Assembly: GCA_018221135.1 (NCBI GenBank)
Contig: JAAOYB010000009.1
Span: 1 to 56,477 of the forward strand
Direction of reading: 5' to 3'
Length of the DNA: 56,477 bases
From: Candidatus Woesearchaeota archaeon
GTDB taxonomy: Archaea; Nanobdellota; Nanobdellia; Woesearchaeales; BM511
In this document: piece after piece, positions 13,761 to 42,636 of the stretch
Numbering within the stretch: position 1 is the first letter of the stretch
Layout: every line of letters begins with the position of its first letter
The notes under the pieces: model-generated
The model's database searches: none
What the model was told of the DNA's origin: nothing
What the model saw: the letters and a program-made list of their open reading frames with translations, nothing else
Translations under genes and position numbers: made by a program

Positions 13761-13776
13761 TTTTTTTTTTCTTTGG

Positions 13777-21328: not shown

Positions 21329-24300
21329 ATGTTAGTTCTGTGTAGAAATCAACAGTTGAGTAAACTCCTTCATGATAATCACGCAGAAGAGCCGGGAAGT
21401 AAACTTCGTAATCATAAACTCCGTATTCTCCTACTAAGTCTTGGTTGATTTTTGTTATGAACAGAACATCTTGGCTGCCATCGTATTCTAATCCGCCATC
21501 GCTGTAATCCCATAAAATACCAGTTACGAAATTGTCATTGATGGTGCTGTTAACAATTGCTACGTTACTAAGGTTCTTATAATAAATATTAAAATTGCTT
21601 GTTTGCTTAGGCAAACCACCAAGGGTGTAAGTGGTGTTGACACCATCAACGAAATTAGTCATGTTAAGCTCGGAATCCAACTCTTCAAAATCATTATTAA
21701 GACTAGAACTATTATCAATTCTTCTGCCAAGACTTTGTAAACTACTAAAATCTATGTAGCTACCAGTCTCAACCACGAAGACATTACCTGTAGGGTTAGA
21801 GTAATCCCATCCACTAACTGTTTCATTAGATGCCTTAGCAAGGGTTATTGTGCCACTAACATTGCCAAAAGTCAAACTCCAAGCAGGAACATTAACAGTA
21901 TTATAAGCCTTATTATTAGTTTCGTCAGTCTCAACCACGCTACCATTCGTACTCAGTGGAGGGTCAACAACTACATAAATATCAATCGGGCCGGGTCGTG
22001 AGATAATGAAACTAGTATTAACCGTGGCGTTAAAACCATATCCTAAGTAATTAATTGTTTTATTAACCCCTATTTGGACGCCTCCTAAGTCAGGGTCGCC
22101 ATCAAAGAACTGAACCTTAAAAGGAATAGTTGCATTAACGTTTCCGACATTTCTAATAGTTGCGTTAATAGTTATGTTTTGAGCTTCTCTTGGACTCGAA
22201 TTGCTAAAGAAAATGTCGTTACTAAGTATTTGAAGATCTGGGTTGGTGATGTTAACTGAGTAGTTATTTGATGCCCATCCACTGTTTCCAGCAACATCAA
22301 AACATTGAACATTCCAATTATAATACCCTTCATCTAGGTAAACAGTGAAATTATTTAACACGTCGCTTATAGGAGATGTGTTTGTCTTGTTAGATGCCCA
22401 ACTCCCATTGAAATCTCCCCAGATAGTACAATTATTAAGGTTTGCGTCGTCAGGGATGTATTGGAATGAGACGTCTCCTTTGTTTCTATAATCTTCGTCT
22501 TCAGGGTTGACTAACACAACTGTGGGAGGTGTTAAGTCCTCTGTGTATTTTAGATATATCTGGATGAAATTTGTACCATAGTATTTGTTTGCCGCGTCTC
22601 CTCCTGAATAATACCATCTGGCTCGAAGCTCAATACCATTATTTATTTGATTAACAGTTGGGAAACCTCCTGAGGTCTCATTAAACTCGCATGAAAAAGT
22701 ATCATAGCTTGGAGGTGTTGTATCTGTTAAGGTGGATTGCTGACAAATCTGTTCCCAAGAAGAACTGCTTGTATTGTACCAGTACATTTCATAGAAACCT
22801 AGAGAGTACTCTTGGTATTTTTGGTGTGTTAAATTCATCCAATGAATCGTTGAACCAGCAGTTATACTAGGATTTGAGAAATTAAAATACGCGTAGTCTT
22901 CTGTGTCTTGCTTGTCAACCCAGCTGTGTTCTTGATACAACGAGTCCGAGACATTGATTAATGAAGTGTTGCACGTCCCTGTTTCTTGAGAACAACTAAC
23001 AGGGTATATTTGGGGGTAGAATTCGTTTATGAAAACAGTGAAGTTCCAAGTCTGCGACCACCCAACATGATTTGCTGTGTCAGTGCAACTCACATTCCAA
23101 AGATAAAATCCATTATCAAGTGAGTAAACGTTGAAGAAGTTCTCACCTTCTGTTAATATATCTTTAGAATTATTGAGTGTTCCATTAAGGTATAATGAAC
23201 AATTGCTTACTACTCCTGTGTCTGTGACGTTAAAATAAAGTGTTACGTCTCCATCAATGTCTGTGGACTCTGGAGGTGGACTAGTTAAATTAATAGTTGG
23301 CGCGTAAGTATCATTAACAATTAATACATGTGATTCATAACTCGAAGTATAATTTTGAGTAGCAGGGCTACTTAAGTTTATCACGTATTGACCAGGCGTG
23401 CCAAAAAAAGAATTGTTATTCAAAGGACTAGTACCATTATTGATTAATAAGTCATCGATGTAGAGCAACAAGTAACTCTCGCCTGATACGAGGTACCCTG
23501 TTAGGTTAGCGTAACTTGACTCATTAATTGAATAATCACTGTCTGTTCCGTTAATTAATAAATTAACAGAGGAAGATGCTTTGTTAACGGTGTAGGTAAA
23601 ACTGTTTGTCCAGTTTAAGTTACTCTCGCTGTCGTTTGCGTACATCTTCCAAGAATAAGTCCCTGCAGCGATAGGTCCATAGTTGTAATAATAAATATCG
23701 TCTGTTTTCCCTATTATTGAATAATTGTGTGTTGAGCCGTTGAAGTTGTGCTCTACCCAAACAACGTCTATTATTCCGTTGTCTGTCCAAGAAACATTGA
23801 ATTGGTAGTTTTGTATGGGTGAATAATTAATTGGGCTACTCGGATAAGCAACCGGGTTTGACCAATTCGGTGGTGTTTGATCTGTTTGAGTTGTAAAAAA
23901 ATATTCAATGCTTTGATTTGTGTTACCTGCGGAGTCTGAAGAGTTCACAACGTAATAATAAGTAGTTGAAGGCAAAAGACTAGTAACGAGTACGTTATGT
24001 GAAGTTACTAGTGTTAAATCTGATTTGTTAAGAGTGTAAACACCTGTGATTAGTCCGTATTTTACAAGTGACGTCGCTGGTTCATCAGTAGTCCAGGTAA
24101 TATTAACTGATGAATCCGTTATTGAGACGTTAGCGACATTAGTGATAATGGGTGGTGTTACGTCTCCTGATTCATTAGTAGTCGCGGTGTCATTAGCCCA
24201 AAATCCTTTGTTTCCAAAAACATCTACTGGTCGTAGTTGAATCTCATAAGTCGTGTTAGAAGAGAGACTAGTTGCGTTGTAATACTCGATTCCAGCTGAG

Positions 24301-26597
24301 AGGTTTGTTTTAAACAACCCACTAACCCATACTTCTACGTGGTCTAAATCTCCATAAAACGTGGGGTTCGTCCAATTCCATAAAATCCAGGCTTCTCCTG
24401 TTAGTGTCTCGTTAAGATTAGTAATATTATTAGGTGGCGTTACGTCTTTTACATATATCCAAAGAGTTTTTGACGTCGCCGTGTAGTTTTGATTGCCAAG
24501 ATAAACAGCTGTTACGTTAAGATCTCCATGATTATTATAACTAGAAATATTGATAAGTGGTGATGGACCACTTTGGACTAGTGTGCCGTTAACGTATAAT
24601 AATATGTTTCCTTGTCCAGCAGCGAGCACGGCGGTGATGTTTACGCTTTGAGTCTCATTGATAGTGATGTTGTCTTGGCTTGAGTTAAGATACAAGTTAA
24701 TAACGCTGCTTGCTTTGCTCACAATGTATGTTTGGTTTGGCATAGAGTAATTCCAATTGTTTGAAGTGTCGTTAGCAATCGTTCTCCAAACATAACTACC
24801 AACACCTAAGGCTCCATAGTTGTAATAGTATGCGCTTCCACTATTTCCTGTTATAGGATATTGTTGATAAGTCCCTGTGAAGTTGTGTTCTATTAATACG
24901 GTGTCGACTTGTTCGTTATCAAGCCAAGTAGTGTTGAACTGATAACTAGCACTAGGACTATAAGTGGCTGGGCTTGACGGATTCGTAGTTGGACTTGACC
25001 AATAAGGAGCTATAGTGTCTCTAATTGAGTAATTAATGTAGACCCAGACATGGTCTATGTTACCCGTCGCGGATTTCTGAGCGTCTGTCGTTGCGAGTCT
25101 TATACCAAAAGTGTCATATCTTGATTCATCATCGCTTACTGTATTAAAATATGAGATGCAATCCCATGTGTGATCTAATTCTGATGTGCTCATGGTTTGC
25201 CCTGAAGCTGTTCCCCAAGTATCACTTGAGTAGTTACCAAGCTGCAAATTCCAAGTGTTGCCTTCGCTATCCCACGCTTTTACGTGAATTACGCATTCAA
25301 CTATTTCATCAATAAGATCGGTTTCGTCTGGGAAACTAACTCTTAATGGAGAATTACCATTTCCTTTATCAAAAGGCAAGTAGTTTGTGTCATCGGTTTG
25401 GATGCTTGAGAGCTCACCCGCAGTGCAAGTCGCGCCGGCGTCTTCGTTAAAACAACCATCCGCGTTGTAGGAGCTCTGAGCATACGCAGGGTCATTAGGA
25501 GTGATTGTGATATTATATTTTTCTCCAGGAACCATATCTAGTATTTTATCCCAAGTCCCATGACAAGTCTGAGTTGAGAAATTCCACTCAGCGCACTTAT
25601 ACAATTCATACCCAACAGCTACGAATTCTATGCTGCCATTTACGAAGCTTATTCTTTCAGGATCAATAGCAAAAGCACTTTTTATCCTAACCCCCGGGAC
25701 ATCTGCTTTTTCTACGGGGAGTTCTTCTATACCCAAATCAAAGCCGTTGCTTAAGTTAACATTGTTAAACCTAATTTTTTCTACGAATTTCTTTTTTGGG
25801 ATGAGATCTAATTTTTTGGCGAAGCTATTAACGCTTCTAGCACCACTAAGAAAACTATTGAACTTATCAAATTCATCAATTATAATGTCAGAATCCAAGA
25901 AGTATCCTTTACTGTTTTTTATCTTTGCAGACAAATATGTTTTCTCAATATTACTGAAGTCATTGTTTAAGCTTTGACTAAAATAATAATTACTTATCCC
26001 AAAATTCTTAGGTGTAACGCTCGTTCTTCCTACTGTAAAACTAAGGTTTCCTAATAAAAGATTATTATAATCATATACTAAGACTTCGTATATTCCTTCT
26101 TTGGATGGTACGAAGCGAGTTAGGCTTCTTATATCTCCGAGGAATTTGTAATTTTGGTTATTTGTCTGAATTACTAATGAGCTTATATCATTAGGGTTAT
26201 TTATTGTGATATCAACGTTTTCATTTACCAAGTACCTATTTTTATCTAATCTCACAATATCGTGGTTTTTGTTAGTTGTTCCAACAACAAAGCTTTTATC
26301 TTCGATTAGGGAGTCATCACTGATATTTTTTAATATGATTGAATATTCATCATTGTTTTTTGGAATGAAAAAAACACCGCTACTATAATCACCTAAGAAC
26401 TTGTAATACTCTGTTTGTGAGCTGATAACAAGATACGCGTCTCCGTGATTAATTCCTTCTATTTTTATATTGACAACGTCGTTAACTGAATATGAATCTT
26501 TTTCTAATACCAAAAAATCTGCGTTTACAAAAAAAGAACTAGTTACCACTAATAAAAAAGTCAGTAATAACTTCATACTAGTATTTGTTTTTCTCAT
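21327..26597 (-). CDS. Giant secreted surface protein (1756 aa): shared N-module, FN3-like domains, Cys-pair Ig-like modules, CARDB, shared C-module
   Basis: N-terminal signal/anchor MKLLLTFLLVVTSSFFVNA. Two FN3-like segments (for example ITNVANVSITDSSVNITWTTDEPATSLVKYG). Two W-N-V-x-C modules. CARDB-like segment about 21900-22250 ending in ETDETNNKAYN. Very high density of N-x-S/T sequons. The start overlaps the upstream stop (ATGA). Confidence 0.85.
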   Translation of the reverse strand: MRKTNTSMKLLLTFLLVVTSSFFVNADFLVLEKDSYSVNDVVNIKIEGINHGDAYLVISSQTEYYKFLGDYSSGVFFIPKNNDEYSIILKNISDDSLIEDKSFVVGTTNKNHDIVRLDKNRYLVNENVDITINNPNDISSLVIQTNNQNYKFLGDIRSLTRFVPSKEGIYEVLVYDYNNLLLGNLSFTVGRTSVTPKNFGISNYYFSQSLNNDFSNIEKTYLSAKIKNSKGYFLDSDIIIDEFDKFNSFLSGARSVNSFAKKLDLIPKKKFVEKIRFNNVNLSNGFDLGIEELPVEKADVPGVRIKSAFAIDPERISFVNGSIEFVAVGYELYKCAEWNFSTQTCHGTWDKILDMVPGEKYNITITPNDPAYAQSSYNADGCFNEDAGATCTAGELSSIQTDDTNYLPFDKGNGNSPLRVSFPDETDLIDEIVECVIHVKAWDSEGNTWNLQLGNYSSDTWGTASGQTMSTSELDHTWDCISYFNTVSDDESRYDTFGIRLATTDAQKSATGNIDHVWVYINYSIRDTIAPYWSSPTTNPSSPATYSPSASYQFNTTWLDNEQVDTVLIEHNFTGTYQQYPITGNSGSAYYYNYGALGVGSYVWRTIANDTSNNWNYSMPNQTYIVSKASSVINLYLNSSQDNITINETQSVNITAVLAAGQGNILLYVNGTLVQSGPSPLINISSYNNHGDLNVTAVYLGNQNYTATSKTLWIYVKDVTPPNNITNLNETLTGEAWILWNWTNPTFYGDLDHVEVWVSGLFKTNLSAGIEYYNATSLSSNTTYEIQLRPVDVFGNKGFWANDTATTNESGDVTPPIITNVANVSITDSSVNITWTTDEPATSLVKYGLITGVYTLNKSDLTLVTSHNVLVTSLLPSTTYYYVVNSSDSAGNTNQSIEYFFTTQTDQTPPNWSNPVAYPSSPINYSPIQNYQFNVSWTDNGIIDVVWVEHNFNGSTHNYSIIGKTDDIYYYNYGPIAAGTYSWKMYANDSESNLNWTNSFTYTVNKASSSVNLLINGTDSDYSINESSYANLTGYLVSGESYLLLYIDDLLINNGTSPLNNNSFFGTPGQYVINLSSPATQNYTSSYESHVLIVNDTYAPTINLTSPPPESTDIDGDVTLYFNVTDTGVVSNCSLYLNGTLNNSKDILTEGENFFNVYSLDNGFYLWNVSCTDTANHVGWSQTWNFTVFINEFYPQIYPVSCSQETGTCNTSLINVSDSLYQEHSWVDKQDTEDYAYFNFSNPSITAGSTIHWMNLTHQKYQEYSLGFYEMYWYNTSSSSWEQICQQSTLTDTTPPSYDTFSCEFNETSGGFPTVNQINNGIELRARWYYSGGDAANKYYGTNFIQIYLKYTEDLTPPTVVLVNPEDEDYRNKGDVSFQYIPDDANLNNCTIWGDFNGSWASNKTNTSPISDVLNNFTVYLDEGYYNWNVQCFDVAGNSGWASNNYSVNITNPDLQILSNDIFFSNSSPREAQNITINATIRNVGNVNATIPFKVQFFDGDPDLGGVQIGVNKTINYLGYGFNATVNTSFIISRPGPIDIYVVVDPPLSTNGSVVETDETNNKAYNTVNVPAWSLTFGNVSGTITLAKASNETVSGWDYSNPTGNVFVVETGSYIDFSSLQSLGRRIDNSSSLNNDFEELDSELNMTNFVDGVNTTYTLGGLPKQTSNFNIYYKNLSNVAIVNSTINDNFVTGILWDYSDGGLEYDGSQDVLFITKINQDLVGEYGVYDYEVYFPALLRDYHEGVYSTVDFYTELT

Positions 26598-29500
26598 TTT
26601 ATCTCAGCGTAAAACGCTACTGCGCTAGTGTCTGGTGTTTTGTATTCTCTAAGCGCTGCGGGGACTTTTATCTCAAAATCATACGTTCCGTTAAAACCTA
26701 TTTTGTTTTCGTTAACCTCTGTTACGAATACTAAGTCTTGGGTTCCGTTATACTTTGGTCCGTCGTTTGAATCCCACAAAATCCCAGTCAAAAAATTGTT
26801 GTTTACAGTGCTGTTAATAACAGGCACATCATAGATGGTGCTTGTGAAAATAATGTAGTTCTTAGTGTTTTTTGCGCTGCCGCTTTGCGTGTAAGTATTA
26901 TTTATTGAATCAGTATAATTAGTCATGTTAAGAGCTGTGTCTATCTCTGCGAAGTCATCGAACTCAGAAGAGTTAGAAGTGTTTTTACCAATAGCGAGAA
27001 GGCTAGTCCAAGAAACACTACTATCATAATCAGCTACGAATAAGTTATCACCAGTACTGTTAGCTTTATTCCAACTAAACAAAGTATTATACGCGGAGTT
27101 ATCAATGTTTAATATCGAAGTGGTATTACCTGCGAATACGTGGTGACCACTGATAGTTATTGCTTTGTAAGCCTTATTATTAGATTCGTCACTTTCAGTT
27201 ATGGAACCATTTGATGCGATTGGTGGGTCCACTACAACGTATATCCTGGTGGTGCCCATCTTTGTAGTCCAATTAACACTAAGGGTTTGGTTGCTACCAA
27301 CAACTAAGCTATTGATTGTTTGATTAACCCCTATCTGAACTCCAATGGTGTCAGGGTTTCCTTGCCAGAACTGAACTACGAAGTTATTTGCTGTTGCTCC
27401 TCCAACATTATAGATATTAGCGAGGACTGTTATGTTCTCACCTTCAACAGGATTATTATTGCTAAAACTAATATTGCCTGCGTTTATTACTAAGTCCGGC
27501 GCGGGTACTGTGAAGTTATAAGTAAGACTAGTATTGGTGTTTCCTGCTAAGTCAACACAAGTAACATTCCAATAATGGATTCCTGCACCCAAACCAGGAA
27601 CACTAATATTAGCCCAACTACCACTAGTGATGTTTGTAAATGATTGGTTATTGTTTGAATCAATAGTTAAGTTACAAACTGATAATATTGGTGCCATGTT
27701 ATCACTAACTGTGAAGTTAAAAAACACGGTGTCATTATTTGTTAAGTTATCATTCTCGGGAGCTGTTAGGGTAATACTTGGGAGAACTGTGTCTACGTAG
27801 ATAGTGATTGGTGTAGAGTTATATTTATTAGTTGCTTCGTCTACTGCTTCTAATACTACACTCCAACTACCATTAGTCAAAGCGTTTAGGTTATCACTGT
27901 CAGGCGTGTTGTTATTTGTTGTGCCGCTAGCATTAAGCGTGCTATTAACGTACAAGTAATAATTTAGTACTAAGTCCATGTTATCAGTTACCAAGAAATT
28001 AATAAGTGGAGACGCCGTGTTAAACCAAGACTCATTTTTAGTGGTGATATTGGCAAAAGAAGGGGTTAAATCTATGTATAAGCTTCTGTTCTCATCACCG
28101 AATCCTTGAGAATAAAATGTTGTGTTGTCAAAACAAGTAATGCTCCAATTATAGCTTCCTTCAAAGATTTCGCTAGTAATATTATTAGTGGCGTTATTAG
28201 TTATTTGGCTTCCGGGCTTACTCTGATTAAAGTTTCCATCAATTAATAAGCTGCAATTCTCGATTCCTGTCTCGTCACTTACGTTAAAGTAGAATGTTAT
28301 GTTTCCATCATTAAACCAACTATTTGTTGGAGGCGTGACTAGTGTTATGTTAGGAGCCCTAAACACGTTAAAAGTTTTGGTCTCACTAACATTAAAATTG
28401 GTTGCTTCATCAATGCAGGTCACGTTCCAACTATGAACTCCTTCAAAAAGATTGTTCGCTGTGTGGTTTCCGTAACTATTATTAGAAATGTTCTGTGAGT
28501 AAACTTGGCTTCCATCAAGGGTGATGTTACACAATATCGGGTCGTCCAAGTTGTCAGAGACGGTGAAATTAAGAGTTGCGCTGCTACTAGTAATGTTTGC
28601 TTGGTCGACTGGATTAGTAAGGTTAATGGTTGGTTTTGTGATATCAACTATTATTACAAGAGTATAATTAGCGATGTTATTAGCTTCATCTAATGTCTCG
28701 ATGGTTACGTTATGGTAACCCTCGCTTAATGGCCCGATTGTTTGATTAGTGTTGGTGTTATTAGTTATGTTAGTACTAGTAATAAAGCCTTGATCAACAT
28801 ACAAGGAGTAGTTGATGTTGTCATCTAAGGCATCGGTTATGTTAAAAATAATGTTAGGGGTCGTAGTATTAAACCACGAATTGTTCTCTGCTTGGTAATT
28901 AACCACTGCACTGGTATTATCTATGTACAGTGTGATAGTGTTGGAATCTTTTGTTCTGTTAAGATAATCAGTTACTCTAATAGTAATTAACCTAATGCCT
29001 TCGTTTAGAGTTGAGAGATTTAATAATTGGGAGACATTATCAGTTACGCTTCCATTTTGCCCATTAGGCACTCCGTTAACTAAGACCGAGTAATTAATGC
29101 TACTATTAGTGTAGTCATATAATGTGAAGTTAATAAGTGGTGTTAAGTCACTAGTCCAAGTAGGGCTAGGGGGGCTTGTCAGATTAGCCCATAAAACGCT
29201 TATATTGATAGTCGCGTTATTATTAGAGTAGTTAGTCTCGAAGACTCCTAAGTCTGGGTTGACAACGCCATAAATAGAATAATAACCTTGATTTATAATC
29301 CATGTAGTGTTGACTGTGTTTGTCTGCCCAGGACTAAGTGACAGGCTTATATTATTTCCTATCTGGACCCCTATTCCAGGTGGTCCTTGCCAGAACTGAA
29401 CTAAGAAGTTACTACTACCAGAAGCCCCGTTGTTTGTTACGTTAAGATAAATCGTTAAGTTCTCACCTAAGTCTGGGTTGCTGTTATTAAACCAAATCCT

Positions 29501-32500
29501 AGTATTATCTGTGTATAAATCAGGTGCTTCCACGGTGAAATTCCAAGTAGAGGTGGTGTTGTAGTTTCCAAGGTCATCCCAGCAAAGCAGACTCCAATTA
29601 TGCGAGCCATAAACAAGGCCGTACACGGTGTGATTATGATAATCTCCGCTACTAAAATTAAGGTTAGTCGCGTTAACTGCTCCATCAACTGTTAAGTTAC
29701 AATAAACTATGCTTGACCAAGTATCATTAGCTGTCCAATTAAAATTCACGTTCTCGGTAGGAACAGTGATGTTGTCCCCGGGGTAGGAGCGGTTTATGGT
29801 TGGGGGGTACAAGTCAACTATCAATGTTTTTGTTGTTTGATTGGTTCCTTCTAATCCGTATGCGTCTGTGCAGTTAACAGTCCAATTATATATTCCATCA
29901 GCGAAGTTGTAAGCAGTTATGTTATTCTCAACTCCCACACTTATGTTGTTGTTAGTCTCATTTCTTAATCCGTTAAGTATGAGTGTGCAGTTGCTTATGT
30001 TATTACTATTATCGTACGGTGTGAAAAAGAAGGTTATGTTCTTCTCATTAGTTCTGTTGTTGTGTTGTGGGTTGCCTAAGTTTATCCTTGGCGGCTCATT
30101 TACTGTGAAGTTATAAGTAAGACTAATATTGGTATTGCTTGCTAAGTCAGTACACGTGGCATTCCAGTAATGCAATCCATCACTAACATTGTACTCTGTG
30201 TGGTTAAAATATGAGCCATTTAACACCACTGTTGGTCCGGCTATTACGTTACTATCAAGACTAATATTACAAGTTGTGTTAGGCGCTAAGTTATCCCATG
30301 CTGTTAAGTTAAAGAGTATTGTGCTAATATTAAAGACGTCGTTATCAGGAGTTATCAAGTTAATAGTTGGGTTTGTTAAGTCCACAGTAAAATTCCAGGT
30401 TTCCGTGCTGTTAACAGTGTTATTATCCCAGTCCGTGCAATCCCAATACCAAGTGTGAAATCCTTCACTAAAACCATTTTCTGTCCAACTATCAATTTGG
30501 TTTGCGTTAGGATACCTCTCTATACTGTAATTCACGCTGCCATCTAGGTATAAATGACAATACTGCAAAGTAAGATTATTATCTTCGGGGAGGTAATAAA
30601 AAGTTACGTTACCTGTGTTATTCCAACTATAAGGAGGAGGAGCGATTAATGTGACTTCTGGAGTGAAACTAACATTGAAGTACCAAGTCTCACTAGTAGT
30701 GCTTAGTTGGCTTGAGTCAGTACACTCAACACTCCAATTATAACTTCCTTCACCAAAATCATAACGGCTAATATTGGTCCAATTGCCACTAGTTGCGTTA
30801 ACAGTTATGTTGAATTTCTCGTTTATGTATAAGTCACAAAGCAAAGTTTGTGTTATCTCATCATACGCTGTGAAATTAAAATTGATAGTTGTTGTGTGAA
30901 TAGTGTCGTTTTCTTCAGGGAAGGTGAGATTAACCCATAACGGCGCGGTTTTATCAACGTAAAACCATTCCAAACTACTATTACCAACGCTGTTATTAAC
31001 ATCAGTGCAGTTAACACTCCAATTATAAAGACCTTCAGCTAAGTTATCCCTGGTAAAATTACTAGTGCCCCCATTAGTTATGTTAATAGTGCCTTGTGTG
31101 TATTGATAAGCATCGTTAAGATATAATGAACAGTTTTGTATTCCTCCAACGTCTGTAGCGTTGTAATAAAAAGTGACGTTCGAATCATTTTTTCCTTCAT
31201 AACTTATAGGTTCTACTAATACAACGTAGGGCTCGATATCCACGCTGAAATTAAGATTAACGCTCGTCCCGTTCCTATTCGCGTCATCTGTACAAGTAAT
31301 ATTATAGTAATGAACACCGTTGGATAATCCACCTACGAACCTAGTATTATTAAATACTCCACTAGCATTAGCAAAGAAAGGACCACTAACCCCATAATCC
31401 GAGATGTTTATAGTACACTCAACGATTTCATCAACGGCGTCGTAAACATTGAATTCAAAAAATAACCACGAATTATAAATAGTTGACGCATTAGGATACT
31501 TGGGAGTAATAAAAGGATCATTAAAGTCTACGCTGAAATTAATAACGCCAGGTTTAGTGCTTTGTGAAGAGTTATCAAAGCACTCAACAGTCCAATTATG
31601 AATTCCTTCTGAGACGTTATACAACGTAAAATTATTAGTGACTCCGCTTGTGATGTTAGTACTGTTATCACTTGGTGCGTCATCTAAGAAAATAGTGCAA
31701 TTAGCAATTCCGCTACTATCAATTGGGGTGTACTCAAAGGTTATGTTCTCAACTAAGACCCAATCCCCTTCTGAAGGGTATTCGAGATTAATAGTTGGCC
31801 CGGCGTTTAAGTGGAAAACCCAAGTACTATTACTAATATTTGTTCTGCCAAGACGATCACTGCACGTAACATTCCAATAATAATCATTATCTGTAAGACC
31901 AAACAAAGTGTAATTTCTAATAGTGTTATTAGGACTTATAATATTAGGATAAAAATCTGAATTAATTCTTAAATCACAACTAAGATTATCTGTTAAGTCA
32001 TCAGTTGCGTTCCACTGAAGCGTTACGGTGCTGCTATTAATTGTGTTGTTATCACCTGGGTAGATTAAGTTAACGTTTGGGTCTGTTTCATCAACCCAGA
32101 AAATCCAATTCTTACTCCAACCAGTACCTGCTCCATTAGTACAACTAACATTCCAAGTATGATTGCCTTCGTTTATATTGGTTACGTTGAAATAGTTGTA
32201 CTGGTTTACTTCGATAGCACTATCATTACCTTTATTGTTTCCGTCTACGTAGATGCTACAATTATCTATTCCTGAGTCATCAGTTGCGTTGTAAGTAAAC
32301 GTGCCGTTTTCGCTTAGGAAGCCACCAGTGTAGTTCTGGGGGTTTACTAATATTGGCAGTGGTGGTCCTTGGACTGTGAAGTTCCAAGTCTGACTGGTGT
32401 CAAGCCATCCCGCGTCATCCCAACAAGTTACATTCCACCAATGCAATCCATTAACAACTGTTCTAATATTAGATTCTATGGTGTTGTTGATTACATCAAG

Positions 32501-35500
32501 GTAGCTAGTGCTATTAATATTAATGCCGTCAATTGTTATGTTACATTGAAGTAATGAGTCAAGATTATCTGTTACTGTAAAATTAAATTCGATGTCGTTA
32601 AATCCAAATATATCGCTGCTATTAGGGTAAAGTAAAGTCGTGTTTGGAGGTGTCAAGTCCACTGTAAAATTTGTGTTCGGGGTTTGGTATGAGTTGTTGA
32701 ATATGTCGCTACAATTAACGCTCCAATAATGCCAACCTTCAAAGATGTTATTTATGCTGAAGTTGTTTAGAGCCCCATTAGTTAAATTAGAGGAGTTTTT
32801 GCTATTGTTATAAACTCCGTCAAGGTAAATACTACAATTGTTTAATCCATGCATATCGTAAGGGGTAAACAAGAAAGTGATATTAGTAGTGTTTGAACTA
32901 TTGCTTTCTTGGGGGTAATCTAATGTTATGTTTGGTCCCGTTGTGTCAACTGTAAAAAGCCAAGTACTACTCGTATTAGTGTTGCTTATGTCTTGCCAGC
33001 AAGTCACATTCCAATAATAATCATTATCAGGAAGGTTGGTAAGGGTGTAGTTTGTTATCTCTCCACTATTAGCAAAAATGATATCGGTGTTATTAACTAC
33101 GCCGTTGAGAGTTAAGTTACAACTAATAGGTCCTCCTCCTTGACTTGTCGCGTTGAACTGAACATCAAAAGTACTAGTAGTCATATTTGCAATATTAGGA
33201 GGATAAATTAGTAATACGCTTGGCGGCGTATTTGAAATCCTTACATAAATAGTATCGTTTCCTTGGTTTGAGACATTATCTAGACAAACAGCGTCAAACC
33301 AGTAAAAACCATCAGTTATCAAAGCAGTATTTGTTGAGCCATTCCATATATAACCACTAACAAAATTAAGACTTCCATTAAGACTAGTTGTTCTAAAACT
33401 ATAATTACAACTACTTATACCATCACTGTCAATAGCGGTAACGTTGATATACTCCCACCCCGTAAGGGTAGGGAATTGCAAAACATCCAACGCGGCGTAA
33501 TCTGAGAAGATATATCTACTACCATCACCAGCACCGTTAGTAGCAGGCGTTGACTCAACTAAGAACCAAACATCATATGATGATGAATTAACAAAATCAC
33601 TAATGTTTCCAGTTACTTGCGGAGACGCACTCACATCACTACTAGTACTGCTACTAGTGTAAATGTTTTGATAACTCCCCGCGGTGAAGTTCCAAACCCA
33701 AATAGTATAGGTATCTGCTCCATCATTAGGTTTTTCTGTGTGGCCATCATAGTTGAATCTTAATGAATAAACAGATGAAGGGCTTTGACCTATCTTAAAT
33801 TTTAAGCTGTGATATGCTTGATTATTATTACCGGTTATGCTATGATTATACTTGCTTTCATCGTTTGTTTCTAAATAAGTATAATTTGCAACGCTTGCTT
33901 CTGTCCCGGTTAATAAAGTTGCGTAAACCTCTGTTTTGACTCCATGATAAGCCTTGTTATTATTATCAGTGTAATCATATGAATTTACATCATAGCTTGG
34001 TTCATTAATAACAACAGTCGTAGTAGCACTTAGATTATATTGGATGTCGAGATATGTGAAGTTGACATAAGTTAAGTTCCAATTCTGTGTTCTGTGACCA
34101 GCGGCTAATAAGTTATCAGTAATCCAAAGACTAACACTGTTAGCTTCGCTATAAGTATTAATCCAACTAGTGAGGTTACATGTATCTACTCTGTTAGTAG
34201 TGCTGGGTGAAAAGCTACATGCAACTTCATAGGCTCCGCTACTACTATTGTATACTTTTATGTAAGTAGTCCAATTATTACTTACTGTCAAGTTATCTTC
34301 TTGGTGTTCGTATCCAAAGATTACTTGGTTAACATCATAACCGATGGGTACGTTGTCTGTGAAGTTAACTTCTATTCTTTCTTCAAGAGGCGTTGGAGTA
34401 TCTCTTTTTAGCACTATGTTTCTAGAAGAATTATCTGTTTCGTTTACTTCACTTAATACATTTAATCCTGTGTTATCTCTATCAGTTAATAAAGCCAAGC
34501 TAGGCCTAAAAATCACAATTACATCTCTTTGAGCATAAAGAATACTACTGTTACTATCATTTATTGTTATCGTGTAATTTCCAGGAACTAAAGTCTGAAC
34601 TGAAGGGATAGTCCAAGGGTCTGAGGTGTTACCTTGTCCTCCAGTACTGATAGGTTTTGGATAGCTTGATACGCTTTGACCTGTGCTTCTTTTTTTGATA
34701 TCAATAGTTATGGTGTTTGTTTGTGAAAACCCAAAACCACTTATTTGAACGATTTCTCCTCTGCTATAATATGTTTTATCTGTTGATATAATTGGTGTTA
34801 CGTTAAAATACGCGGTTTGGCTTGAATAATTAGTATTGCTGCTACCATCTGTTGCCCATACAAAGAAGCTGAACTCACCTCCAAACGTACTTGTGTAAAG
34901 ACAACTCCAAATATCTCCTGAGCCGCTCATAGTGCAGTTCTGCCTAGTCCCATTAGATAATAATATGTCCGCGTTAGCACTTGAGACAGATACGTCGTCA
35001 GTTATGTTAGCTGTTAAGTTAAACACTGTTCCAGAGATATCTATGATTGGAGTGGCGTTCACCCAATTAATAGTTGGGGAGGTGTTATCTCCTATTCCTG
35101 CTACGGAGAAGCTTTGAGTAGGTGTGCTGTTCCATTGACTTTGGCTGTCATTTGCGTAGAACTTCCAATAAACAGTTGTCGCAGCAGGAGCTGTTATGTT
35201 TATTGAATAATTTGACACATTATTTGATGTGAATTGATAAAAGCTTGTGTTCCACCAAGTACCGTTTTGGTTTATGCTAAAAACCCAGCTATCAAGTGCT
35301 TCGTCATCACTCCAAGTACTGTTGAATGTTACGTACATGTTCTGATAAATCATTGATTCATTCTTAGCCCAACTAAGAGGTGTTGGAGGATCACTGTACT
35401 CAGTGTAATTAACTCGAAAGAAAGCAGCGTCAAAAGTCGCTGTTTGTACATCGTTATCGTTTCCTGCGTGAGCTCTTATCACAACATTACTATTTTGCCA

Positions 35501-37648
35501 ACTACTACAATTCCATGAGAAAGTCCCGGTAATATTAACACAACTCACTCCTCCATCACTTGTAGGGCAACTTGAGTCAACGTTTGTAAAAGAACCACTA
35601 ACGCCAGTGATTGAGACATCAACACCGACACAAGTCTTCCAATCTCCACCTATCCACCAATTAGTGCACGCCTCTACTCTTTCTACCTGGGCGCAGTTCG
35701 TTAAAACTTTATTCGCGATTACTCGAACCCCTGCCCACTTATTTCTTCCCGCAGTTACGGTTTCAGAATTACCACCATCAGCGTCTTGGCTGTCAAGATT
35801 AGTGCATGTAGTGTAGTATCTATTATCTTGAGCTTCTGCGTTCATATAATCACATGTTGTGGCGTTTAAATCCCATAATGGGTCTGCTGCTATGTACCAA
35901 GGCCTTGCTTCTACAAAATACTCAGAAGAAGAGTTTATCACGTACCTAATAACTGCTGGGCCAAGCGTATAAAGATCTGGCGCGACTAATGGGGCTTGGA
36001 GCTCGTAATAAACAATTGAATTCGGGCTAATGTTCTCCCAGCGAAGCTCCTTTTTATACCCGACATCAACTACTACTGCGCCTCCTGAATCCACCACGCT
36101 CAAGTTCGTTGGTATTAGTTCTGTTAAGTTAATGTTGCCTGTGTTGTTAATATAAGGAGATATTTCTATGCTAGTAGTAAACGGTCCAAGCCAAGGGTCA
36201 ATTGAGAACGGCACATCCCTGATTATTTCGAACTCGTAGAAAGATTTTACTAAGAATTTAGAGGTCATAGAAGCATTAGTGTTCTGAGCTGTTGCGTAGA
36301 CATATAAAGTATAATTGCCTTGACTTTGGGTGTTGTTGAATTCTGCTTTGTAAACGCCTCTTTCAACTTCCACTACTTTATTAGGAGTAAAAAGAGTATA
36401 AGTCTGATTAGTTGGAGTAGTCACATTTAATGTGATGTTCGCATCTGCGACGAGGAATCCTTGATTATCAACAACTGCGACGTAGATAATCGCGGTTTCG
36501 TTAGGGTAATATATTGGTTTGTGTGTGTTTATAGTTGAGATTCCAGTCTCCGCGAAGCCAGGGTCATCAGGAGTTATTAACAATTCATATTCTTCTCCAG
36601 GTATAAGGTTTTTTATCTTAACCCATTCACCGTAGCATGTTTGCTCGGTGAAGTTCCACGCAGCGCATTTGTAAAGCTCAGAACCAGTAGCCACCAAGGT
36701 TATTGTTGCGGTATCAAAATCTATACTTGTAGGATCCACGGCGTAAGCGTCAACTACGTTCTTGTTTTCTTTCCACGCATCTTGGATTACTTCTTTTCTT
36801 ACCTCCTCAAATCCGAGCTCAGGGTTTTGTGTCCTAATATTTTTAAAAGTGATGTTTTTGACTTTTCTTGAATAATTATGTATTGTTAAATCATTAGTTT
36901 TCCTAAAGAATTTTTTATGCTCTTTGATTTCTCCTGCTACGAATCGAACCCTGTTTTTTGAATCCTTAACCTTTAATGTATCCGTTGCTTTTTTGGTTGT
37001 CTCGGGTTCTTGACTTGCAACAATCGTGTCATCTGGGATGTCTTGTTTTGATGTGGGGGTAATTTGAATAGTTGGGTTGGGGGTGTTTTCTTCTACTTCA
37101 AATCTTAAAGTACTCAAGATGTTGTCATATAAGTCTTTTAGTAATACTAAGTATCCTCCTTTTTGTTTAGGGGTAAACACAACGTTTTTTAATAATCCAA
37201 AATACGTGCTTTGTTGTTTTTCACCAATTACTTCTACTTTGAAATCTTCCTCTGAGATAAGACTAATATTTATTTGTTCACCTAAAGAATACGTTTCTTT
37301 TTCGATATTAGCACTAATATTTTTTGGTTGTTTTTTTACTACTTCAAAAACCTTTTTTTCTAATACAATACTGTCTTGTTTTAGCATCACGGTGTAAGTT
37401 CCTGTTTGCTTAGCATCAAACACCACGAGATGACTTATCTCGCCAGAATACTTATAAACACCGTTAACGGCAAGTATTTCTAAGCTAACCCCTGGTTTTT
37501 TTATTGTTTCTTTATCTAATGTTATGTCGATGGTTTCTCCTAGGGTATAAGAAGATTTTGAGAGGCTTATAAGCTGAGTGTTTTGTGCGCTACTAAAAAC
37601 TACCAAAAACAACAAGGTCACTATAAATAATAGGGTTTTCTTCTTCAT
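26594..37648 (-). CDS. Giant secreted surface protein (3684 aa): shared N-module, about 20 tandem ~95-aa Ig-like modules, two CARDB domains, shared C-module
   Basis: Signal peptide MKKKTLLFIVTLLFLVVFSSAQN. Thirteen consecutive modules at about 29535-33225 follow the pattern P...V.F.....D......C.L.LNG........G..N.....L.DG.Y.WNV.C.D..GN...S.TW.F.VD. CARDB-like segments lie at about 29205-29535 and 27150-27505. There is no C-terminal TM or sorting signal. Confidence 0.85.
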   Translation of the reverse strand: MKKKTLLFIVTLLFLVVFSSAQNTQLISLSKSSYTLGETIDITLDKETIKKPGVSLEILAVNGVYKYSGEISHLVVFDAKQTGTYTVMLKQDSIVLEKKVFEVVKKQPKNISANIEKETYSLGEQINISLISEEDFKVEVIGEKQQSTYFGLLKNVVFTPKQKGGYLVLLKDLYDNILSTLRFEVEENTPNPTIQITPTSKQDIPDDTIVASQEPETTKKATDTLKVKDSKNRVRFVAGEIKEHKKFFRKTNDLTIHNYSRKVKNITFKNIRTQNPELGFEEVRKEVIQDAWKENKNVVDAYAVDPTSIDFDTATITLVATGSELYKCAAWNFTEQTCYGEWVKIKNLIPGEEYELLITPDDPGFAETGISTINTHKPIYYPNETAIIYVAVVDNQGFLVADANITLNVTTPTNQTYTLFTPNKVVEVERGVYKAEFNNTQSQGNYTLYVYATAQNTNASMTSKFLVKSFYEFEIIRDVPFSIDPWLGPFTTSIEISPYINNTGNINLTELIPTNLSVVDSGGAVVVDVGYKKELRWENISPNSIVYYELQAPLVAPDLYTLGPAVIRYVINSSSEYFVEARPWYIAADPLWDLNATTCDYMNAEAQDNRYYTTCTNLDSQDADGGNSETVTAGRNKWAGVRVIANKVLTNCAQVERVEACTNWWIGGDWKTCVGVDVSITGVSGSFTNVDSSCPTSDGGVSCVNITGTFSWNCSSWQNSNVVIRAHAGNDNDVQTATFDAAFFRVNYTEYSDPPTPLSWAKNESMIYQNMYVTFNSTWSDDEALDSWVFSINQNGTWWNTSFYQFTSNNVSNYSINITAPAATTVYWKFYANDSQSQWNSTPTQSFSVAGIGDNTSPTINWVNATPIIDISGTVFNLTANITDDVSVSSANADILLSNGTRQNCTMSGSGDIWSCLYTSTFGGEFSFFVWATDGSSNTNYSSQTAYFNVTPIISTDKTYYSRGEIVQISGFGFSQTNTITIDIKKRSTGQSVSSYPKPISTGGQGNTSDPWTIPSVQTLVPGNYTITINDSNSSILYAQRDVIVIFRPSLALLTDRDNTGLNVLSEVNETDNSSRNIVLKRDTPTPLEERIEVNFTDNVPIGYDVNQVIFGYEHQEDNLTVSNNWTTYIKVYNSSSGAYEVACSFSPSTTNRVDTCNLTSWINTYSEANSVSLWITDNLLAAGHRTQNWNLTYVNFTYLDIQYNLSATTTVVINEPSYDVNSYDYTDNNNKAYHGVKTEVYATLLTGTEASVANYTYLETNDESKYNHSITGNNNQAYHSLKFKIGQSPSSVYSLRFNYDGHTEKPNDGADTYTIWVWNFTAGSYQNIYTSSSTSSDVSASPQVTGNISDFVNSSSYDVWFLVESTPATNGAGDGSRYIFSDYAALDVLQFPTLTGWEYINVTAIDSDGISSCNYSFRTTSLNGSLNFVSGYIWNGSTNTALITDGFYWFDAVCLDNVSNQGNDTIYVRISNTPPSVLLIYPPNIANMTTSTFDVQFNATSQGGGPISCNLTLNGVVNNTDIIFANSGEITNYTLTNLPDNDYYWNVTCWQDISNTNTSSTWLFTVDTTGPNITLDYPQESNSSNTTNITFLFTPYDMHGLNNCSIYLDGVYNNSKNSSNLTNGALNNFSINNIFEGWHYWSVNCSDIFNNSYQTPNTNFTVDLTPPNTTLLYPNSSDIFGFNDIEFNFTVTDNLDSLLQCNITIDGININSTSYLDVINNTIESNIRTVVNGLHWWNVTCWDDAGWLDTSQTWNFTVQGPPLPILVNPQNYTGGFLSENGTFTYNATDDSGIDNCSIYVDGNNKGNDSAIEVNQYNYFNVTNINEGNHTWNVSCTNGAGTGWSKNWIFWVDETDPNVNLIYPGDNNTINSSTVTLQWNATDDLTDNLSCDLRINSDFYPNIISPNNTIRNYTLFGLTDNDYYWNVTCSDRLGRTNISNSTWVFHLNAGPTINLEYPSEGDWVLVENITFEYTPIDSSGIANCTIFLDDAPSDNSTNITSGVTNNFTLYNVSEGIHNWTVECFDNSSQSTKPGVINFSVDFNDPFITPKYPNASTIYNSWLFFEFNVYDAVDEIVECTINISDYGVSGPFFANASGVFNNTRFVGGLSNGVHYYNITCTDDANRNGTSVNLNFSVDIEPYVVLVEPISYEGKNDSNVTFYYNATDVGGIQNCSLYLNDAYQYTQGTINITNGGTSNFTRDNLAEGLYNWSVNCTDVNNSVGNSSLEWFYVDKTAPLWVNLTFPEENDTIHTTTINFNFTAYDEITQTLLCDLYINEKFNITVNATSGNWTNISRYDFGEGSYNWSVECTDSSQLSTTSETWYFNVSFTPEVTLIAPPPYSWNNTGNVTFYYLPEDNNLTLQYCHLYLDGSVNYSIERYPNANQIDSWTENGFSEGFHTWYWDCTDWDNNTVNSTETWNFTVDLTNPTINLITPDNDVFNISTILFNLTAWDNLAPNTTCNISLDSNVIAGPTVVLNGSYFNHTEYNVSDGLHYWNATCTDLASNTNISLTYNFTVNEPPRINLGNPQHNNRTNEKNITFFFTPYDNSNNISNCTLILNGLRNETNNNISVGVENNITAYNFADGIYNWTVNCTDAYGLEGTNQTTKTLIVDLYPPTINRSYPGDNITVPTENVNFNWTANDTWSSIVYCNLTVDGAVNATNLNFSSGDYHNHTVYGLVYGSHNWSLLCWDDLGNYNTTSTWNFTVEAPDLYTDNTRIWFNNSNPDLGENLTIYLNVTNNGASGSSNFLVQFWQGPPGIGVQIGNNISLSLSPGQTNTVNTTWIINQGYYSIYGVVNPDLGVFETNYSNNNATINISVLWANLTSPPSPTWTSDLTPLINFTLYDYTNSSINYSVLVNGVPNGQNGSVTDNVSQLLNLSTLNEGIRLITIRVTDYLNRTKDSNTITLYIDNTSAVVNYQAENNSWFNTTTPNIIFNITDALDDNINYSLYVDQGFITSTNITNNTNTNQTIGPLSEGYHNVTIETLDEANNIANYTLVIIVDITKPTINLTNPVDQANITSSSATLNFTVSDNLDDPILCNITLDGSQVYSQNISNNSYGNHTANNLFEGVHSWNVTCIDEATNFNVSETKTFNVFRAPNITLVTPPTNSWFNDGNITFYFNVSDETGIENCSLLIDGNFNQSKPGSQITNNATNNITSEIFEGSYNWSITCFDNTTFYSQGFGDENRSLYIDLTPSFANITTKNESWFNTASPLINFLVTDNMDLVLNYYLYVNSTLNASGTTNNNTPDSDNLNALTNGSWSVVLEAVDEATNKYNSTPITIYVDTVLPSITLTAPENDNLTNNDTVFFNFTVSDNMAPILSVCNLTIDSNNNQSFTNITSGSWANISVPGLGAGIHYWNVTCVDLAGNTNTSLTYNFTVPAPDLVINAGNISFSNNNPVEGENITVLANIYNVGGATANNFVVQFWQGNPDTIGVQIGVNQTINSLVVGSNQTLSVNWTTKMGTTRIYVVVDPPIASNGSITESDESNNKAYKAITISGHHVFAGNTTSILNIDNSAYNTLFSWNKANSTGDNLFVADYDSSVSWTSLLAIGKNTSNSSEFDDFAEIDTALNMTNYTDSINNTYTQSGSAKNTKNYIIFTSTIYDVPVINSTVNNNFLTGILWDSNDGPKYNGTQDLVFVTEVNENKIGFNGTYDFEIKVPAALREYKTPDTSAVAFYAEIK

Positions 37649-38208
37649 TTTCTAAGTTGTTTTATAGCTCTAAGCCTCTCTTCCTCTTCTTTTAATAATG
37701 AAAAATAATCTTCGTATGATTGAAGTATCAAAGCGTTTTTTATAATGGACAAATCACTAAATATTTCTTCTTTGAATTCTTGATTTGTTAGAAAAAAAGC
37801 GTTTTTTGTTTTCTTTTTAGAGAAAACCTTTTTTGTGTCTTCTTCAGTTATGATGTATAAGTTGGTATTGGAATAAATTATGTTTTTCGTCTTTTTAGTG
37901 CTTAAAAGTAAATTCACTAAGTCTAAGATTTTTCTAGGAATTCTTTTTGTTTGCTCTTTTTTTTTGTTTATCTCATCAATTGATAGAAGCGCTATTGCTA
38001 GTTCACTTTGAAGATTTAAACTGCACAAATAACTTTTTCCACGGACTTCTTTTCTTATTACTTCTTGGCTTATCAAAGAATTTATTTTTTGGTTTATGTG
38101 CGGGTATGCTTTGCCGAGTTTTTTTGAGATACTAAGAATTGAGTGCTGGGTTAAGATATCAGAATTAAAAACCCTAATTATTTCTTGCTCTAGTCGGTTA
38201 CCTACCAA
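37645..38208 (-). CDS. Winged-helix-like putative transcription regulator (187 aa), first gene of the giant-protein operon
   Basis: The N-terminal segment ILSISKKLGKAYPHINQKINSLISQEVIRKEVRGKSYLCSLNL fits an HTH plus wing. It is paralogous to ORF 42070..42606. Its stop overlaps the 3684-aa start (ATGA). Confidence 0.55.
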   Translation of the reverse strand: MVGNRLEQEIIRVFNSDILTQHSILSISKKLGKAYPHINQKINSLISQEVIRKEVRGKSYLCSLNLQSELAIALLSIDEINKKKEQTKRIPRKILDLVNLLLSTKKTKNIIYSNTNLYIITEEDTKKVFSKKKTKNAFFLTNQEFKEEIFSDLSIIKNALILQSYEDYFSLLKEEEERLRAIKQLRK

Positions 38209-38269
38209 TTTAGCTTACCCTGCAAATCTACTTTTGGAATAATCTTTTTTAGTCGCGCACAAAAAAATT

Positions 38270-38291
38270 ATTATACTATTTTTAGTATAAT
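38270..38291. promoter_or_regulatory. Perfect 22-bp palindrome (operator candidate), just downstream of a TATA box for the wHTH gene
   Basis: ATTATACTA-TTTT-TAGTATAAT. The minus-strand box AAAGGTTTATAAAA (reverse complement of 38302-38315) lies 11 nt upstream. The palindrome therefore covers the expected transcription start. Confidence 0.5.
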
Positions 38292-38370
38292 TAATATTTA
38301 GTTTTATAAACCTTTCTGTTTATATAACAAATTTTATAGAATATAATAAGATTTTGATAAAAAAATAGTT

Positions 38371-38392
38371 ATTATACTATTTTTAATATAAT
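38371..38392. promoter_or_regulatory. Second copy of the palindrome, 101 bp from the first
   Basis: ATTATACTA-TTTT-TAATATAAT has one arm mismatch and shares the flanking A-run. It abuts the stop of the 503-aa gene at 38400. Confidence 0.45.
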
Positions 38393-38399
38393 AAAGAAA

Positions 38400-39911
38400 T
38401 TATTTTTTTAGTTCTTCATCTTTGTTTTCTTCAGAAACTTTAGAATCTTCTTTTTGTGCAGAAACCCATTCCTTTTCTTTTGGATCACTTTTTTGTTCTT
38501 TTTCTTTTTTTCTTTTTTTGAACAAAACCTTTATTTTATTATGGATGTTTTCAAGATAATCAGTATACATAAAAAGCCGAGGAGTTATGAGATTAATATT
38601 GTTTGAAACCTCAACTATGCGATCCTCATTATTATTCTTATCAGACTCATAAGTATTTTTATCAAGGAATTTATCAACATAATAATTTCTTTGCAACTCG
38701 CGTTGAAGTTGTTCAATAACCTTTTTTTCCTCAAGATAAGTCTTCATCAACCTATTATTATAATAAATCAAAAAATAATAAAGAATTGGCTTATAAACCA
38801 ACACACCAATAATTACAAAAATAATTATTGTAAGCCAGTTGTTCAAAAAGAAATCTGCTACGTCTCTTTTAAAAGACGCTTTATTAATACCTCCAAAAAT
38901 GATATTATCACTCTCTACTTTTATCAAGTTATTCTCCAAACTAACACTAATATTGGCTGCTGCTTCAAAACTCTCAAGAGAATACTCTTTTAACAACGAC
39001 TCATACAAATTAACACTAAGATTATCAAGAATCCCAAGGCTTTCAAAATCACTTATCCTATCCTCTAAGACCAAGATGTCTTTTCTTATATCAATAGCAG
39101 AGGCGGCGAGCTTATTAGCATCACTTATTATATTAACGGCCTCTTCATATTCTTTTTTAGACGCGGCCTCTTCAAACTCAATAAGTAAAAGCGTGATTCT
39201 TTGATAAGAAATATTTTGGTTAACTAATTCTTCTTGGTTTTTTTGATAAGTATTATTTTCTTCTAATATGTTTTTTACAAAACCAAAATCGTCATATCCA
39301 AGCAGAAAAGAAGCGTAATCTTGGTTATCAAAAAAACTTTTTTGATCATTATAATAAGAAAAAAACAACGAATTATTATCGTTTTTGACAGAAAAATTAT
39401 TATTGTATGACTCCAAAGTTTTTATCTTATCTTCTGAGACGTTCTTTAATAAAATATAAGAATCCTCTTTTACTTTATCTGCTTCATCTCTTGCCAAATC
39501 AATGTTCGCAGCCTCAAAATCACTTTTTGCATATAAGAGATTAAGATTAAGACTTATGACGTCAACGCCAAAATCGCCAATTAATCCAAGAAGTTCGGTT
39601 AATTCAATCAATTCTTTTTGTAACTCCACGATGCGCTCTGCTTCTCTAAATACCTCATTTGATTTCTCAAGGGAAGCATTATAATTTCTAGCATTAAAAT
39701 AAACCCTAGCATCCTCATTGATGTTAATTAATGGAAGAGTGGGGTACCCCTCTTGTTGAAGTTCTTCTATTCTAACCCCGGCGGCTTCGTGACTCTCCCT
39801 CGCACTTATAGGGTCATTAGCGTAGACAACACTTGAAACTAAAAGGATTACTAGAAGCAAAAAAAGTGTTTTGACAGTATTATTCTTCGTCGCCATAGAA
39901 CACTTCCTCAA
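38400..39911 (-). CDS. Type I membrane protein with a long helical ectodomain and a K/E-rich cytoplasmic tail (503 aa)
   Basis: Signal peptide TLFLLLVILLVSSVVYA. The middle is coiled-coil-like. A TM helix WLTIIIFVIIGVLVYKPILYYFLIY lies near residue 370. An alternative start is at 39896. The ORF overlaps the end of the KaiC-like gene. Confidence 0.6.
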   Translation of the reverse strand: MRKCSMATKNNTVKTLFLLLVILLVSSVVYANDPISARESHEAAGVRIEELQQEGYPTLPLININEDARVYFNARNYNASLEKSNEVFREAERIVELQKELIELTELLGLIGDFGVDVISLNLNLLYAKSDFEAANIDLARDEADKVKEDSYILLKNVSEDKIKTLESYNNNFSVKNDNNSLFFSYYNDQKSFFDNQDYASFLLGYDDFGFVKNILEENNTYQKNQEELVNQNISYQRITLLLIEFEEAASKKEYEEAVNIISDANKLAASAIDIRKDILVLEDRISDFESLGILDNLSVNLYESLLKEYSLESFEAAANISVSLENNLIKVESDNIIFGGINKASFKRDVADFFLNNWLTIIIFVIIGVLVYKPILYYFLIYYNNRLMKTYLEEKKVIEQLQRELQRNYYVDKFLDKNTYESDKNNNEDRIVEVSNNINLITPRLFMYTDYLENIHNKIKVLFKKRKKEKEQKSDPKEKEWVSAQKEDSKVSEENKDEELKK

Positions 39912-42606: not shown

Positions 42607-42636
42607 TTTTGCGATAACTCAATACTAATTTAAATT

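Follow-up and report, generated by a model that had tools for sequence, protein, structure and literature searches.

The stretch of DNA analyzed in this study, referred to below as the window, is 56,477 bp long and archaeal in character; its genes have BRE/TATA promoters and include those for NucS, DUF7504, KaiC-like ATPases, and a chemotaxis set. Three consecutive genes on its minus strand, encoding a 187-aa protein modeled as a winged helix (wHTH), a 3684-aa giant surface protein, and a 1756-aa giant paralog, form a predicted operon with a single promoter (Table 1). The 4-nt overlap between the wHTH stop codon and the start of the giant-protein gene indicates translational coupling, and because the three genes overlap in succession, one promoter appears to serve the whole 17-kb operon. 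The TTG start codon of the 187-aa gene, at 38208, agrees with the N-termini of its homologs (M/V-x-GN-x-LEQ). The intergenic region examined here, 38209–38399, is bounded by this start codon and by the stop codon of the 503-aa gene.

Table 1 Coordinates of the genes and sequence features discussed in the text
Feature	Position	Strand	Description
1756-aa giant paralog	21327..26597	−	CARDB, fn3-like domains; operon gene 3; start overlaps 3684-aa gene stop by 4 nt
3684-aa giant Ig-repeat surface protein	26594..37648	−	Big_13, MG2 domains; start overlaps wHTH stop by 4 nt
187-aa wHTH protein	37645..38208	−	Operon gene 1; AF2 pLDDT 89; presumed palindrome binder
T7 runs (sense strand)	38261..38267; 38359–38365	−	First run 2 nt past proximal palindrome, second run past distal palindrome; within 45-nt duplicated unit
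Proximal operator (putative)	38270..38291	−	ATTATACTATTTTTAGTATAAT; sense strand ATTATACTAAAAATAGTATAAT; perfect 9+4+9 palindrome
Predicted transcription start	38277..38283	−	~38280 by leaderless-gene ruler; leader ~72 nt
BRE/TATA element of operon promoter	38302..38315	−	AAAGGTTTATAAAA; fits window-wide consensus AAAGnTTTATAWA
Distal operator (putative)	38371..38392	−	ATTATACTATTTTTAATATAAT; sense strand ATTATATTAAAAATAGTATAAT; one arm mismatch
503-aa gene	38400..39911	−	Upstream neighbor; outside regulated unit
178-aa paralogous wHTH	42070–42606	−	26% identity to 187-aa protein, E 1e-15; heads neighboring KaiC-like operon

Promoter and twin palindromes of the operon

An earlier reading of this region, made from the sequence alone and referred to here as the sequence-only reading, had noted two 22-bp palindromes, one perfect and one with a single mismatch, and both were verified in the sequence. 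The proximal copy has 9-nt arms and a 4-nt spacer, and the start-to-start distance between the copies is 101 bp. Each palindrome belongs to a repeated unit of ~45 nt with 80% identity. The A-runs said to flank the two copies were likewise present, as an A7 run on the plus strand (T7 on the sense strand) beside each palindrome within the duplicated unit. These T7 runs are possible oligo-T termination or pausing signals; next to the corresponding sites of relatives they are not conserved. When up to three mismatches were permitted, the palindrome had exactly two matches in the window, compared with 0.11 expected, and two or more matches were obtained in 0 of 100 dinucleotide shuffles. Measured from the first T of the TATA box, the TTATA core of the distal copy starts at 81 nt upstream and that of the proximal copy at 20 nt downstream.

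The sequence-only reading had also placed a BRE/TATA-like element on the minus strand between the palindromes, and this element was found at the position listed in Table 1. Its counterpart in relatives is GAAAyATTTATAAA. In window genes with a good TATA box, the TTTA lies mostly 29–35 nt before the start codon; a BRE/TATA element located ~30 nt before the start codon indicates that the mRNAs are leaderless. For the 187-aa gene, by comparison, the TTTA is at −102 (starting at 38310), in agreement with the long leader proposed for it. Using the leaderless genes of the window as a ruler, we predicted the transcription start as TTTA+30. The start predicted in this way coincides with the center of the proximal palindrome, as would be expected from the earlier proposal that this palindrome covers the start. 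The only public sequencing run that holds the locus is labeled as metagenomic RNA-Seq; its depth was flat at ~7 over genes and spacers alike (36500–40500), and because of this even depth the run behaves like DNA. It is probably the sample from which the window was assembled. A search for RNA runs holding the related locus L134 found none.

Several other short elements were observed in the window. A GC island, GCGCGAC on the sense strand (38252–38258), lies in the AT-rich leader just past the T-run, where it is the loop of a T-run/A-run hairpin; it is common to the window and the related locus L001 (5271–5277) and absent from the related locus L002. Long A-run/T-run palindromes occur at gene ends (1545–1567, 2630–2648, 13749–13770, and 47487–47507; e.g., AAAAAAAAACTTTTTTTTT) and are probably bidirectional oligo-T termination signals. 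The gene for the 178-aa paralog also has a long leader, with TTTA at −85 (region 42607–42781), and its TATA box (AAAGTTTTATATA) is followed downstream by a perfect palindrome of 16 bp, AATTATAGCTATAATT, at 42639–42654 on the minus strand. This palindrome has the same ATTATA/TATAAT hexamers as the twin palindromes, with a spacer of 2 nt instead of 10, and the orthologous L001 promoter has not kept it. Another perfect palindrome, TATATAGTATTAGTTACTATATA (18847–18869), directly follows the TATA box (AAAGGTTTATATA) of gene 18885–19427, the 180-aa product of which is unrelated to the wHTH protein; it may be another operator.

The palindromes in homologous loci

The loci used for comparison (L001–L004 and L124–L152) were picked by protein homology only, and their proteins have 31–54% identity to the window protein. 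The non-redundant set consisted of 30 independent metagenomic loci with a total length of 131,147 bp. The core pattern TTATA-N10-TATAA occurred 51 times in these 30 loci, in every case (51/51) no more than 300 nt upstream of a wHTH homolog, and there were no occurrences elsewhere in the 131,147 bp. Palindromes of this class flank the BRE/TATA of the homologous genes in ~25 independent loci, and the site just downstream of the TATA box was always present in these homologous loci. In 21 loci, the window included, a BRE/TATA in sense orientation lies between exact twin sites.

The arrangement of the twin sites was examined in these 21 loci. In 13 of them the two sites are spaced by exactly 74 bp. 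The TTTA of the TATA box follows the start of the distal core by 40 nt in 12 loci and precedes the start of the proximal core by 34 nt in 11. In the main clade, the distal site occupies approximately −70 to −51 and the proximal site approximately +4 to +24 relative to the predicted start, and the order of elements is [ATTATAYY-N6-RRTATAAT], ~14 nt, [CGAAAyATTTATAAATA], [ATTATAYY-N6-RRTATAAT], leader, and start codon. The window belongs to a smaller clade with L001 and L002, in which the proximal core starts 20–24 nt after the TTTA and the twin spacings are 88, 101, and 113 bp. A TATA box lies between the twin sites of both close relatives, ATTATACTAAAATTAGTATAAT and ATTATATTAAAATTAGTATAAT in L002 and ATTATACTAAAAATAATATAAC and TTTATACTAATTATGATATAAT in L001. 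The motif common to the whole family is ATTATAYY-N6-RRTATAAT. Several of its positions had been left free in the search pattern, yet they are conserved: the flanking A and T at ~90%, Y at positions 6–7, and R at positions 14–15.

A weight matrix was built from 41 sites of relatives, leaving out the two sites of the window itself. With this matrix the two palindromes ranked at the top of the window with 22.6 bits each; the runner-up, at 13.5 bits, is inside the MCP gene, and 20 simulated windows gave no score above 15.2. A pattern scan of a contig collection gave at least 119 single matches in unrelated AT-rich bacteria and archaea; among the matches listed, none adjoins a 187-aa homolog, and the window's own genome is absent. 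By a rough estimate these scattered matches are consistent with chance, and they carry no information on the genome of the window. For the twin palindromes, a chance origin is excluded by the shuffles, the loci of relatives, and the weight matrix.

The conservation extends to the putative target of regulation. Residues ~20–600 of the 3684-aa protein are homologous to the product of the gene that follows the wHTH homolog in relatives, which is usually longer than 990 aa and extends beyond the fetched DNA. Because the wHTH gene, its promoter design, and its giant target are conserved together, they can be regarded as one conserved unit. Because the members of the main clade are fairly closely related (median 70% protein identity), part of this conservation reflects shared ancestry.

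Some features of individual loci are also described here. In all loci, both operators have a central spacer rich in A on the sense strand; the weight matrix therefore favors the sense orientation (22.6 vs. 18–19.5 bits), and the sites are not fully symmetric. This asymmetry could be an A-tract bend or simply strand composition. Weaker extra copies of the palindrome were seen in L002 (27–46 and 140–159), 22 bp downstream of each main site, and beside the distal site in L001 (5162–5182); they hint that some genomes have arrays with more than two binding sites. L127–L134 and L151 contain a second conserved promoter-like element, GAAAAGCTTAAATAC, ~130–140 nt upstream of the main TATA box. A G-rich stretch, GAGGGGAGGGTGGGTTATTTCACCAT, comes next, still upstream of the distal operator, and the two together may mark a small gene or RNA. 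Several main-clade promoters have an extra short palindrome, CTCTTAAAAGAG, at the predicted start (e.g., L128 2081–2092), which is absent from the window.

The 187-aa protein and its family

The structure of the 187-aa protein was predicted with AlphaFold on the basis of four homologs. In the model, residues 5–64 form three helices and a β-hairpin wing, followed by two long helices and an α/β C-terminal domain. The best PDB neighbors found with Foldseek were the MarR-family repressors MepR, MexR, MarR, and SlyA (E 5e-4 to 3e-3). For the MarR fold the Foldseek probability was 1.0 at an E of 5e-4, with TM-scores of only 0.35–0.5 across ~105 aligned columns and 7–18% identity. The model thus favors the sequence-only proposal that the first gene of the operon encodes a wHTH protein. 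When modeled separately (pLDDT 80), the C-terminal domain had no significant PDB neighbor, the best being the MntA nucleotidyltransferase antitoxin at E 0.08, and no conserved catalytic motif was found in it.

A profile search gave 362 cluster representatives of the family (at 50% identity), all with the ~190-aa architecture. Pfam, NCBIfam, and PDB sequence searches placed the 187-aa protein in no curated family, and literature searches found no description of the protein family or of the palindrome motif. The HTH regions of some family members weakly matched HTH_24, MarR_2, TrmB, HVO_A0114, or Lrp-type models, but no member passed a curated threshold of Pfam or NCBIfam. For the MarR family (PF01047/PF12802), the window protein had no Pfam match, and MarR_2 matched 2 of 69 relatives; for the TrmB family (PF01978), the window protein again had no match, and two of the 69 relatives matched at E 0.0045. 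The HVO_A0114 family (PF25212) matched 18 of the 69 relatives at E ≤ 0.01 (best 8.5e-7), but the seven 187-aa homologs that were scanned individually scored no more than 16 bits, short of the gathering cut-off of 27.6 bits, and the window protein, its 178-aa paralog, and the L001 paralog gave zero matches. An Lrp-type HTH (the LysM model) was weakly matched by five relatives (E 1e-4).

The recognition helix and the palindrome half-site differ together between the two clades. In the window, L001, and L002, the helix AYPHINQK is found with the half-site ATTATAYTA, and in the main clade KYPYINKK is found with ATTATAYYT. This co-change supports the wHTH protein as the binder of the palindromes; it represents essentially one evolutionary split and is therefore suggestive.

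Proposed regulation of the giant-protein operon

Because the palindromes are conserved upstream of the regulator gene in all relatives examined, they are most likely autoregulatory sites of the wHTH protein. We consider it probable that the two palindromes are operators of the promoter of the three-gene operon and that they are most likely bound by a dimer of the wHTH protein that the operon itself encodes, which would act by negative autoregulation. The sequence-only reading had suggested an operator pair with autoregulation by the wHTH protein, and this suggestion is strengthened by the modeled wHTH fold and by the occurrence of the motif only at the BRE/TATA promoters of homologs (~25 loci). 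The mechanism that we infer, including its binder, the sign of regulation, the cooperativity, the transcription start, and the signal, would be as follows. A wHTH dimer on the proximal site, centered on the predicted start, would block recruitment of RNA polymerase. A second dimer, on the distal site upstream of the BRE, would cooperate with it across the TBP/TFB site and so strengthen occupancy. The promoter, a very strong one of consensus type, would become accessible once a signal, for which the α/β C-terminal domain is a possible sensor, caused the protein to leave the DNA.

The effect of the distal site could have either sign, because its position is the one usual for archaeal activators; alternatively to repression, it may have a positive role at low protein concentration. 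Because a consensus BRE/TATA is already present, a cooperative repressive role is favored. At a spacing of 74 bp, or 7.0 helical turns, both dimers would be on the same DNA face. In the clade of the window, where the spacings are 88, 101, and 113 bp, the number of turns is not whole; this weakens the case for looping, a feature that we infer.

The palindromes could instead be operators for a different protein: the 178-aa paralog, another regulator, or TBP/TFB bound to TATA-like hexamers. The 178-aa paralog shares the fold pattern of the 187-aa protein (identity and E-value in Table 1), and in its own promoter ATTATA-GC-TATAAT, built of the same hexamers, follows the TATA box; in addition, ATTATA and TATAAT resemble TATA boxes. 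We nevertheless regard a different binder as unlikely, since the motif accompanies the wHTH gene in 30 of 30 loci, most of them without the paralog in the fetched flanks. Binding by TBP/TFB is also opposed by the strong canonical BRE/TATA already present between the sites, and the fixed N10 spacing and dyad symmetry suit a dimeric HTH protein better than TBP. A layout of identical palindromic repeats around a surface-protein promoter also resembles that of bacterial invertons, in which case the palindromes would be the inverted repeats of an invertible promoter controlling phase variation of the giant surface proteins. The chance of this seems very slight: each of the 21 twin-site loci has its BRE/TATA directed toward the wHTH gene, with no opposite orientation assembled; neither joints nor rearranged contigs were found in the run that holds the locus; the neighboring genes scanned revealed no recombinase domain; and the inter-site segment of the main clade, 54 nt, is very short for site-specific inversion.

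Archaeal termination relies on oligo-T tracts, and on the sense strand each palindrome of the window is followed by a T7 run. The palindromes could therefore form hairpins in RNA. Together with its T7 run, the distal one would terminate the 503-aa gene, as the sequence-only reading had offered as an alternative, and the proximal one would form, with its own T7 run, an attenuator in the leader. The sense-strand hairpins have predicted energies of −6.1 to −6.5 kcal/mol with z-scores of −1.8 to −2.7. Several results make this explanation quite improbable. The stems contain only A and U, neither palindrome was picked up by the terminator scan, and the sites of relatives lack a subsequent T-run. 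The uninterrupted outer stem is no longer than 6 bp in 24 of 43 sites, the inner pairs 6/15 and 7/14 covary no more than column composition predicts, and conservation applies to the sequence itself and not only to the pairing. If transcription begins near 38280, the transcript would lack the 5′ arm of the proximal palindrome, which also argues against a leader hairpin; Rfam gave no match, and the fold of the leader is not unusual (z = 0.30). What stays constant for the distal site is its distance to the TATA box (40 nt in 12 of the 21 loci) and not that to the upstream stop codon, which lies 7 nt away in the window vs. 66 nt in L001, where the upstream gene is the ortholog of the 503-aa gene; in the main clade the upstream gene is a different one. 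Termination of the 503-aa gene is thus unsupported as the main role of the distal copy, and the T7 run after it may terminate that gene as a secondary role specific to the window.

The proposed autoregulation by the wHTH protein through paired operators resembles several known systems. Ss-LrpB of Sulfolobus solfataricus is an autoregulator with cooperative binding. Its own control region has three regularly spaced palindromic boxes (PMC4046817). The operon described here would share autoregulation through several spaced palindromic boxes, and five relatives weakly match an Lrp-type HTH; in Ss-LrpB, however, all of the boxes are upstream of the promoter, whereas here the sites flank it, and the order of strands and helices in the C-terminal domain differs from that of the RAM fold, which was compared by description only. 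The MarR-family autorepressors (MepR, MexR, MarR, and SlyA) bind as dimers to 16–22-bp pseudopalindromes, often at two sites in their own promoters. They are the best structural neighbors of the 187-aa model, within the limits of the scores given above; the 187-aa protein differs in having an added C-terminal domain and an archaeal BRE/TATA context.

Other archaeal regulators provide further parallels. Sites that overlap or follow the start lead to repression and sites upstream of the BRE are typical of activators, as described for TrmBL1/Tgr, MDR1, Phr, and Ptr2 (PMC4158304), and the repressors TrmBL1/Tgr, MDR1, Phr, and LrpA block recruitment of RNA polymerase from sites overlapping the start (PMC4158304). 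MDR1 of Archaeoglobus, Phr and LrpA of Pyrococcus, and Lrs14 of Sulfolobus are autoregulated repressors with operators at the start (PMC4158304). As proposed for the operon studied here, the regulator is encoded inside the regulated unit, and a palindrome lies at or just past the start, downstream of the TATA box; the protein families are different, and their targets are not giant surface proteins. To our knowledge, none of these four has been described with a symmetric pair of sites around the BRE/TATA at a fixed spacing of 74 bp. TrmBL1/Tgr, a wHTH regulator of Thermococcales, recognizes the TGM motif TATCAC-N5-GTGATA, and autoregulation has been proposed for Tgr (PMC4158304). Both systems have an archaeal wHTH protein paired with an inverted repeat, and both proteins have the layout of wHTH, long helix, and C-terminal domain. 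The 187-aa protein is outside PF01978, and its family has ~190 aa compared with ~340 aa for the TrmB type. The motif here is ATTATAYY-N6-RRTATAAT, one promoter has sites at both positions, and in place of a sugar regulon the target is apparently a single operon. In Euryarchaeota, archaellum operons are activated by the wHTH protein EarA from a position upstream of the BRE (PMC13286277). EarA is similar, by description only, as a small wHTH protein linked to a surface-structure operon; EarA compensates for a weak BRE, whereas here the BRE/TATA is of consensus type and a second site lies over the predicted start.

The regulation of transcription in uncultured archaea with small genomes is almost entirely unknown, and the giant surface proteins of such archaea are thought to mediate attachment to other cells. 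On the evidence of sequence comparison, a previously uncharacterized regulator family can now be paired with a precise DNA motif, a fixed promoter architecture, and a target operon. Because autoregulated wHTH proteins with operators around the promoter are a well-known class, the value of this finding lies in a well-supported new example and not in a new principle. The comparisons support a unit of a wHTH gene and dual operators, belonging to an uncharacterized archaeal family, that is tied to giant surface-protein operons. Only tentatively, and judging it somewhat doubtful, we propose further that the wHTH protein and its two operators may be a self-contained switch cassette that has traveled with giant surface-fiber operons across a large group of uncultured archaea, in which two dimers exactly seven helical turns (74 bp) apart would clamp the BRE/TATA of a very strong promoter into a repression loop until a signal, possibly contact with a host, releases it through the C-terminal domain. 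If this is true, the cassette would be the first regulatory handle on the deployment of attachment proteins in such archaea.
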